IMG/VR virus record: IMGVR_UViG_3300046642_001000
Span: 167,935-204,762 of that record
Origin: a virus
Taxonomy: Duplodnaviria > Heunggongvirae > Uroviricota > Caudoviricetes
Direction: 5' to 3' (one strand)
DNA length: 36,828 nt
Shown: one piece after another, positions 36,138 to 36,236 of the stretch
How positions within the stretch are numbered: position 1 is the stretch's first letter
How the letters are laid out: each line of letters opens with the position of its first letter
Program-made: the position numbers and the translations under genes
Notes under the pieces: generated by a model
What the model was told of the DNA's origin: nothing
The model's input: the letters and a program-made list of their open reading frames with translations, nothing else
Databases searched by the model: none

Positions 36138-36236
36138 GCCCCCGCCCGATGGATACGGCCTGCTCACCTAAGGGCAGCGACGGAAGCACGCCTTTTAAGC
36201 GTGACGACTAGGGTTCGATTCCCTACGGGGGTACCA
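36138..36236 (+). tRNA. trnK: tRNA-Lys(UUU) with extra arm in the D region
   Basis: Loop CT-TTT-AA, canonical acceptor and T-arm, CCA; 42-nt D region. Confidence 0.75.

Follow-up and report, generated by a model that had tools for sequence, protein, structure and literature searches.

The DNA analysed here (the window, a stretch of 36,828 nt) is part of a large phage-like genome of 62% G+C from soil and rhizosphere metagenomes. Besides a DinG-like helicase, a peptide deformylase, Fpg and a YkuK/RNase H-like gene (a near-identical YkuK protein is found on a 205-kb contig), it encodes an RtcB ligase and an array of tRNAs and small RNAs with three lysine tRNA genes:

25936-27099, plus strand: RtcB RNA ligase gene (PF01139, E 9e-125), 9 kb upstream of the Lys(UUU) gene; context only
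33080-36585, plus strand: tRNA and small-RNA array (18 ARAGORN calls, an RNase P RNA and further structured RNAs)
35879-35966, plus strand: tRNA-Lys(CUU) of 88 nt with a 31-nt D region (type A), missed by ARAGORN, by Rfam and by an initial sequence-only reading
35970-36045, plus strand: canonical tRNA-Lys(CUU) (ARAGORN, Rfam)
36047-36136, plus strand: tRNA with a UAU anticodon, a 4-bp D stem, a 3-nt D loop and a 23-nt variable arm
36138-36236, plus strand: tRNA-Lys(UUU) gene of 99 nt, D region 42 nt (type B), from a scanner tolerant of D-region length

The last of these genes, the subject of this work, is built from the following parts:

36138-36144, plus strand: 5' strand of the 7-bp acceptor stem, partner 36226-36232
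36146-36148, plus strand: 5' strand of a 3-bp D stem, CCG, invariant among orthologues, partner 36156-36158 or 36181-36183
36149-36155, plus strand: D-loop segment with the probable equivalent of G18-G19 at 36151-36152 (orthologue conservation)
36160-36177, plus strand: extra hairpin of 6 bp with a 6-nt loop (folding and orthologue comparison)
36178-36183, plus strand: conserved segment 3' of the hairpin, which could lengthen the arm (36156-57/36178-79) and close the D stem (36181-83)
36186-36205, plus strand: anticodon arm, with C32, U33, UUU, A37 and A38 in the loop (36192-36198)
36209-36225, plus strand: regular T arm, with a 5-bp stem and a conserved 7-nt loop
36233-36236, plus strand: discriminator A73 and encoded CCA

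With a canonical class I tRNA-Lys(UUU) (RF00005) the gene shares the 7-bp acceptor, the 7-nt loop with C32, U33, UUU and A37, a variable region of 5 nt, the regular T arm, A73 and CCA. It differs in the D region, which takes up the 42 nt between acceptor and anticodon stems (36145-36186) and holds the 6-bp hairpin and a D stem of only 3 bp, with a C at position 8 (no U8) and a linker of 1 nt between acceptor and D stem (0 in the L100 orthologue described below). The canonical definition of the D arm (about 16-23 nt, U8, a 10-13/22-25 stem, A14) does not cover such a region, in which GG is nevertheless present. The 99-nt layout, its coordinates and the encoded CCA had all been described in the sequence-only reading, and both the scanner and folding bear them out. 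The acceptor stem that it had called perfect does have seven pairs, six of them Watson-Crick, but the remaining one is a G1-U72 wobble. The added hairpin that it had placed at 36160-36177 forms six pairs, one of them U-G, with pair probabilities of 0.91-0.99. Shuffling the 42 nt yields a 6-bp hairpin in 11% of cases and the fold of the entire gene has a z of only -1.1, so the structural support comes from the relatives of the gene and not from the window copy.

ARAGORN at default settings did not call this gene, nor was there any Rfam RF00005 match over 36138-36236 at E values up to 1; it was recovered by a scanner accepting D regions of any length. Among the 417 tRNA-like genes of the viral loci fetched at that stage, the D region measured 14-23 nt in 414, and the other three, in which it was longer, proved to be overlaps of neighbouring genes. 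An assembly error is ruled out by two other assemblies with identical letters across the gene (X13 contig 35370-36828; X20 contig 36124-36274). A scan for anticodon loops combined with T loops gave no second UUU reader in the window, itself part of a genome, in agreement with what had been claimed from the sequence.

The type A Lys(CUU) gene has a 5-bp D stem at the normal place and a 3-bp tetraloop hairpin in the D loop, 3' of GG. A search for the start motif CCCGATG, proposed in the sequence-only reading as a way to find similar lysine tRNAs, was fruitful in so far as the motif opens this second gene; the 12 matches in IMG/VR were all due to chance, being 3' ends of upstream tRNAs or coding DNA. 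Two of the three lysine genes in the array are thus invisible to ARAGORN and Rfam, and because standard annotators miss such genes, inventories of phage tRNAs undercount them.

Several other elements of the array, all on the plus strand, are structured RNAs. A bacterial class A RNase P RNA (RF00010, 167 bits) lies at 34994-35281, with similar sequence in the related loci L093, L100 and L108. The segment 34650-34725 looks like a permuted tRNA (T arm, acceptor closed by a loop, D arm) and is conserved with paired changes in L093, L100, L108 and L111; it gives a weak YrlA match (24 bits, below the gathering score), and no Ro60 gene was found among the proteins scanned. Between two Leu genes, at 35558-35632, there is a four-way-junction RNA lacking a T-loop consensus or Rfam match, conserved with paired changes in L093, L100 and L108. 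A multi-branch RNA at 34811-34908 (z -2.55, no Rfam match) is 89% identical, with paired changes, at L100:9613-9713, and a two-hairpin element following tRNA-Trp (34495-34572) is kept in L093 and present in diverged form in L111. At 35717-35875 a pair of non-identical Asn(GUU) genes stands in tandem, parallel to the Lys(CUU) pair, Asn(GUU) and Lys being isotypes cut by AriB-type nucleases. A promoter-like site before tRNA-Ala (36482-36510) and a terminator-like hairpin preceding the first tRNA (33048-33073) have counts at chance level.

Orthologues, covariation and the D-stem register

Relatives were reached through homologues of the YkuK gene (96-67% identity), which led to syntenic arrays. 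In every one of them the slot after the UAU gene, which marks the position directly upstream, is a Lys(UUU) gene. The UAU gene itself has a compensated D stem in L100 and is replaced by a canonical Ile(UAU) in L152. The following orthologues were located:

L093:11536-11634, L118:548-646, L100:11563-11661 and L120:9760-9858: type B Lys(UUU)
L094:10863, L100:10794 and L118:294: type A Lys(CUU)
L108:10937: UUU version of type A

The type B genes of L093 and L118 are near-identical copies of the window gene, differing from it in the hairpin loop and, in the case of L118, also at positions 43-44. A diverged orthologue, also of 99 nt, is found in L100 (likewise in L101, L102 and L120), in which 38 of 48 core and 24 of 42 D-region positions are identical to those of the window. 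In L100 both partners have changed in four of the six hairpin pairs, with no pair broken; two of the five T-stem pairs and one acceptor pair (6-67, C-G in the window gene and U-A in L100) are compensated as well. Random substitution at the same sites preserves all six hairpin pairs in 2.8% of trials, and the hairpin had been proposed before the L100 orthologue was seen. As only two independent lineages have the exact type B architecture, this covariation rests on one comparison. In the type A Lys(CUU) genes, stem and loop of the small hairpin vary in sequence while the pairing is kept. Compensatory changes and invariant loops support the idea that the extra arm is under structural selection. 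The sequence-only reading had named unconstrained drift of the insert as the outcome that would speak against it; in the L100 orthologue the pairs are kept instead, and the five-armed tRNA that it had suggested gains support from these compensatory changes.

These data also bear on the possibility of a tolerated or decaying gene, in which a small duplication or insertion would have been neutral or inactivating. The direct repeats at the insert ends would fit a duplication origin, and the hairpin alone is not above chance. Swaps of tRNAs are also frequent in these arrays, L093 for instance holding a canonical Lys(CUU) where L094 holds an armed one. However, arm, acceptor and T stem have been compensated despite changes at 10 of the 48 core positions, the loops are invariant, and within the clade the feature recurs on Lys only (see below), so that decay, already weakened by these comparisons, would be a very improbable explanation. 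Judged by its letters and those of its relatives, the window gene is a real lysine tRNA gene with a structurally conserved extra hairpin in the D region.

How the rest of the D region folds is less clear-cut. CCG at 36146-48 can pair with CGG at 36156-58 (the proximal register), closing a 7-nt loop, or with CGG at 36181-83 (the distal register), which puts the entire insert inside the D loop as a bulged arm. The mini D arm of the sequence-only reading is the first of these; it can form, but is just one of two registers. Fold energies are -36.3 (proximal) versus -34.7 kcal/mol (distal) in the window and -32.5 versus -35.7 kcal/mol in L100, and pair counts cannot choose between them because both CGG are invariant in orthologues. 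We lean slightly towards the distal register, since it accounts for the conserved segment after the hairpin, lets the D stem adjoin the anticodon stem, agrees with the type A genes and gives the same 1-nt and 3-nt linkers as the neighbouring UAU gene. The anticodon stem of the window gene has 5 bp (36187-36191/36199-36203, UUU at 36194-36196), and a G26-C45 pair with a one-base 3' bulge would extend it to six. This bulged register is compatible with all orthologues, including the two adjacent changes of L118, and unless it is accepted the L100 stem has just three regular pairs. Such a compact layout with a 6-bp anticodon stem is reminiscent of tRNA-Pyl, which we take to be a resemblance only.

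Recurrence of extra arms on lysine tRNAs

Across five lineages of the clade the same slot shows three architectures, and its Lys(UUU) gene is always armed. Type B occurs in the lineage of the window, L093 and L118 and in that of L100. In L108, Lys(UUU) is of type A: its D stem is compensated and its D loop carries a long hairpin; the CUU gene beside it has a similar D-stem sequence and no insert, which allows us to place the insert 3' of GG. In L112 and L152 both Lys genes have regular D arms and long variable arms (21 and 24 nt). The UUU anticodon, C32, U33, A37, A38 and A73 are kept in all five lineages. Within the clade all 7 distinct Lys(UUU) genes have an extra arm, as do 6 of the 13 Lys(CUU) genes; these are related sequences and not independent events. 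None of the 120 non-Lys genes of the clade has a long D region. In more distant viral loci, none of 34 Lys genes has a long D region or a long variable arm, and the loci reached with RtcB as an anchor were too distant, their Lys genes being canonical.

An extra helix in the cloverleaf is also known from class II tRNAs (Leu, Ser, Tyr, Sec) and from allo-tRNAs (PMC5389517), and the Lys genes of L112 and L152, with their true variable arms, are class II-like. The window arm, on the contrary, stands 5' of the anticodon arm, on a tRNA with a 7/5 branch instead of 8/4 or 9/3, and the variable region, at 5 nt, falls short of the long arm of class II.

A scan of IMG/VR, which covered Lys genes with a long gap after one common D-stem start sequence, uncovered at least 25 further loci, from unrelated phages, with an armed Lys(UUU). 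All of them read UUU, with 7/7 acceptor pairs, a D region of 30-33 nt and a 2-3-bp, mostly GNRA-capped hairpin after GG, in at least 15 insert variants; at least four of these loci also hold a canonical Lys(UUU) beside the armed one. The pattern specific for type B had a single match in IMG/VR, by chance, and the type A pattern had none there; 31 matches to the type B pattern in GTDB genomes were likewise due to chance and had no T loop.

Prevalence of GNRA caps, a partly conserved loop and the concentration of the arm on one isotype, as expected of identity elements, bring to mind a docking or stabilising element. Such an arm would contact LysRS, a modification enzyme, a phage protein or a tetraloop partner, offsetting the weak D arm with no role for any nuclease. 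Sister lineages nevertheless vary the arm freely, placing it in the D loop with 9-23 extra nt or in the variable region, and we regard this function as unlikely.

Cultured phages carry a simple form of the arm. In GAP31 (NC_019400 89517-89603) a Lys(UUU) gene, the only UUU match to the pattern in that phage, has a 3-bp hairpin in its D loop, and the Asn(GUU) gene has a long variable arm. The same Lys(UUU) arm with different loops is found in PVP-SE1, SSE121 and Erwinia phage pEa_SNUABM_55, phage 4MG also carries a simple armed form, and 27 records match the GAP31 Lys(UUU) gene. These Seunavirus/Henunavirus genes (GAP31, PVP-SE1) have the hairpin 3' of the D-loop GG, as in the window, but theirs is a 3-bp arm in a regular D arm of 29 nt and they are annotated simply as tRNA-Lys. 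With no sequence relationship beyond the tRNA consensus, the GAP31-type arms are convergent and not orthologous. BLAST searches of cultured phages with the window gene and the region around it, and of plasmids with the CUU gene, returned only generic tRNA matches or nothing. A literature search, mostly outside subscription journals, found no published description of an extra arm or D-loop arm in phage tRNAs; to the simple form the window gene adds the larger, rebuilt architecture, the covariation test and the three architectures in one slot of one clade.

The class I isotypes observed with arms, other than Lys, were Asn(GUU), Thr(UGU), Gly(UCC) and Arg(CCG). D-loop hairpins are found on Gly(UCC) and Thr(UGU) at L180:3603 and 3919, in a locus that also has an armed Lys(UUU), and on Arg(CCG) at L144:409.

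Splicing, decoding and a putative shield

The insert might be, as the sequence-only reading had offered as its alternative, a non-canonical intron sealed by the phage RtcB; excision by some other nuclease would leave a 74-nt tRNA with a mini D arm. The insert is flanked by 4-nt direct repeats (36155-58 and 36180-83), such that removal of 25 nt gives 74 nt; this product is called by ARAGORN at a lowered threshold only and has a layout resembling that of the UAU neighbour. RtcB is present in the window, L093 and L100, and D-arm introns are common in Asgard archaea (10.64898/2026.10.13.758758), with which the window shares some 23-25 extra D-arm nucleotides, missed by annotators, and an RtcB nearby. 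Those introns are cut by EndA, whereas the window belongs to a bacterial-type phage and has no 3-4-3 bulge-helix-bulge (defined as in that work) in the D region, nor any relaxed motif in common with L100. No fetched locus has an insert-less copy. RtcB is missing from the syntenic slot in L108 and L112, where it may lie elsewhere in the genome, and neither RtcB nor EndA (PF01974) was found in five other IMG/VR carrier records, 54-90% complete. Furthermore, many D-loop inserts are just 9-13 nt long, and sister lineages carry variable-arm versions instead. An RtcB ligase in a tRNA-rich phage would be accounted for well enough by a repair role, tRNA repair being established for T4-type phages (PMC10264068). 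All in all the intron is poorly supported and looks improbable, and the window transcript very probably stays unspliced. A 71-nt ARAGORN call that begins inside the insert, also at a lowered threshold, was rejected for its 5/7 acceptor.

In our opinion the best explanation, held with roughly even confidence, is an unspliced, charged, five-armed tRNA-Lys(UUU) of 99 nt. This RNA would be cut out of the array transcript, with an RNase P RNA encoded in the same array and the CCA already in the gene, and its arm would project outward at the elbow; its likeliest origin is the D loop 3' of G18-G19, where the simpler relatives have theirs. Lysine identity resides in the anticodon and A73 (PMC9976931), and charging is likely given that both are kept: the host LysRS would read mainly these two elements of the 99-nt tRNA. 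The charged tRNA would decode AAA, and AAG by wobble, and we consider it probable that the window Lys(UUU) is charged and decoding. The opposite view would be a decoy, a mimic of tRNA-Lys, idle on the ribosome, whose role is to bind and tie up LysRS or a nuclease specific for Lys; competition by viral tRNAs has been raised as a possibility (PMC12409363). The core is indeed irregular, with no U8 and a 0-1-nt linker, the anticodon stem of L100 is weak, AAA makes up 4% of the Lys codons, a canonical Lys(CUU) is at hand, and the array holds other tRNA-shaped RNAs. Yet all architectures keep the anticodon loop, A73 and CCA unchanged, the slot holds otherwise regular tRNAs in L108, L112 and L152, and Lys(UUU) is the only UUU reader seen per array fragment, all of which makes a decoy rather unlikely.

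Codon supply is a poor explanation for the gene, given how seldom AAA occurs in the coding sequence of the phage itself (13 AAA, 4%, versus 297 AAG in 4706 codons of likely genes). Host defence offers another explanation. PrrC and AriB target tRNA-Lys(UUU), and AriB also cuts Thr(UGU) and Asn(GUU); AriB contacts the D loop, where a change of U16 to C impairs its cleavage (PMC12409363). A helix added at the elbow or in the variable region could obstruct the docking of a nuclease that binds at two sites. The arm would then block docking of host defence nucleases on the tRNA-Lys body, and Lys decoding would survive while the host tRNA-Lys(UUU) is cut. This shield is made more plausible by the restriction of extra arms to Lys in the clade and by the contact of AriB with the D loop, and bulk fits better than a specific contact because position, length and sequence of the arm differ freely among sister lineages. 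We propose such protection from defence tRNases tentatively, as a putative function that falls somewhat short of an even chance.

Known precedents work by other means. Phage tRNA-Lys with nuclease-resistant anticodon-loop variants has been described (PMC10264068), and the anti-PARIS phage tRNA-Lys (T5 tRNA-Lys(UUU); PMC11464382, PMC12409363) is, like the window gene, a Lys(UUU) in a large phage array. The window gene likewise departs from the AriB site at 36-41, with G39 and G41 for U39 and A41, and its D loop is different at the place of modelled AriB contact. Substituting A for U39 is by itself enough to abolish cleavage by E. coli AriB (PMC12409363), and as the gene already has G39, the arm should be unnecessary against that enzyme. 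The canonical Lys(UUU) beside the armed one in at least four IMG/VR loci, too, counts against our preferred explanation. Whereas the known resistant tRNA-Lys escape by point changes, the window gene adds a whole helix.

In a broader and more speculative reading, which we entertain only as a possibility, phages would have repeatedly and independently added a helix to tRNA-Lys as a shape-based shield; its site would be the D loop in at least three unrelated groups, or else the variable region. The window gene would be the most rebuilt case, still translating with its core compacted to a linker of 0-1 nt, a D stem of 3 bp and a bulged anticodon stem of 6 bp. Where phages are known to evade tRNA-cutting defences they do so by point changes near the anticodon; a retained helix, if true, would be a different, structural means of escape. 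A large hairpin at the elbow would then also have to be tolerated by LysRS, EF-Tu and the ribosome, a point of interest for tRNA engineering. Genes without an arm and with small, long or variable arms form a natural series in the sister lineages, and the simple form exists in cultured GAP31, 4MG and PVP-SE1, making the question directly testable.

Three further types of unusual element were observed in these loci. L100:10520-10640 and L118:175-290 hold a multi-hairpin element of about 120 nt with CCA at its end, absent from that slot in the window; its first hairpin has an anticodon-like loop (UUU in L118, GUG in L100) and it may be a decoy. Nearly identical Lys(UUU)-like genes in L175, L182, L184, L196, L213, L226 and L251 have a full D arm and then some 39 extra nt ahead of the anticodon loop; these may represent an anticodon-arm intron, in which case the true anticodon would be another one. 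Finally, an Arg(UCU)-like gene at L016:3919-3997 has a D region of 7 nt and, after the anticodon arm, a stretch of 21 nt that includes a D-loop-like GG and is able to base-pair with this short D region.
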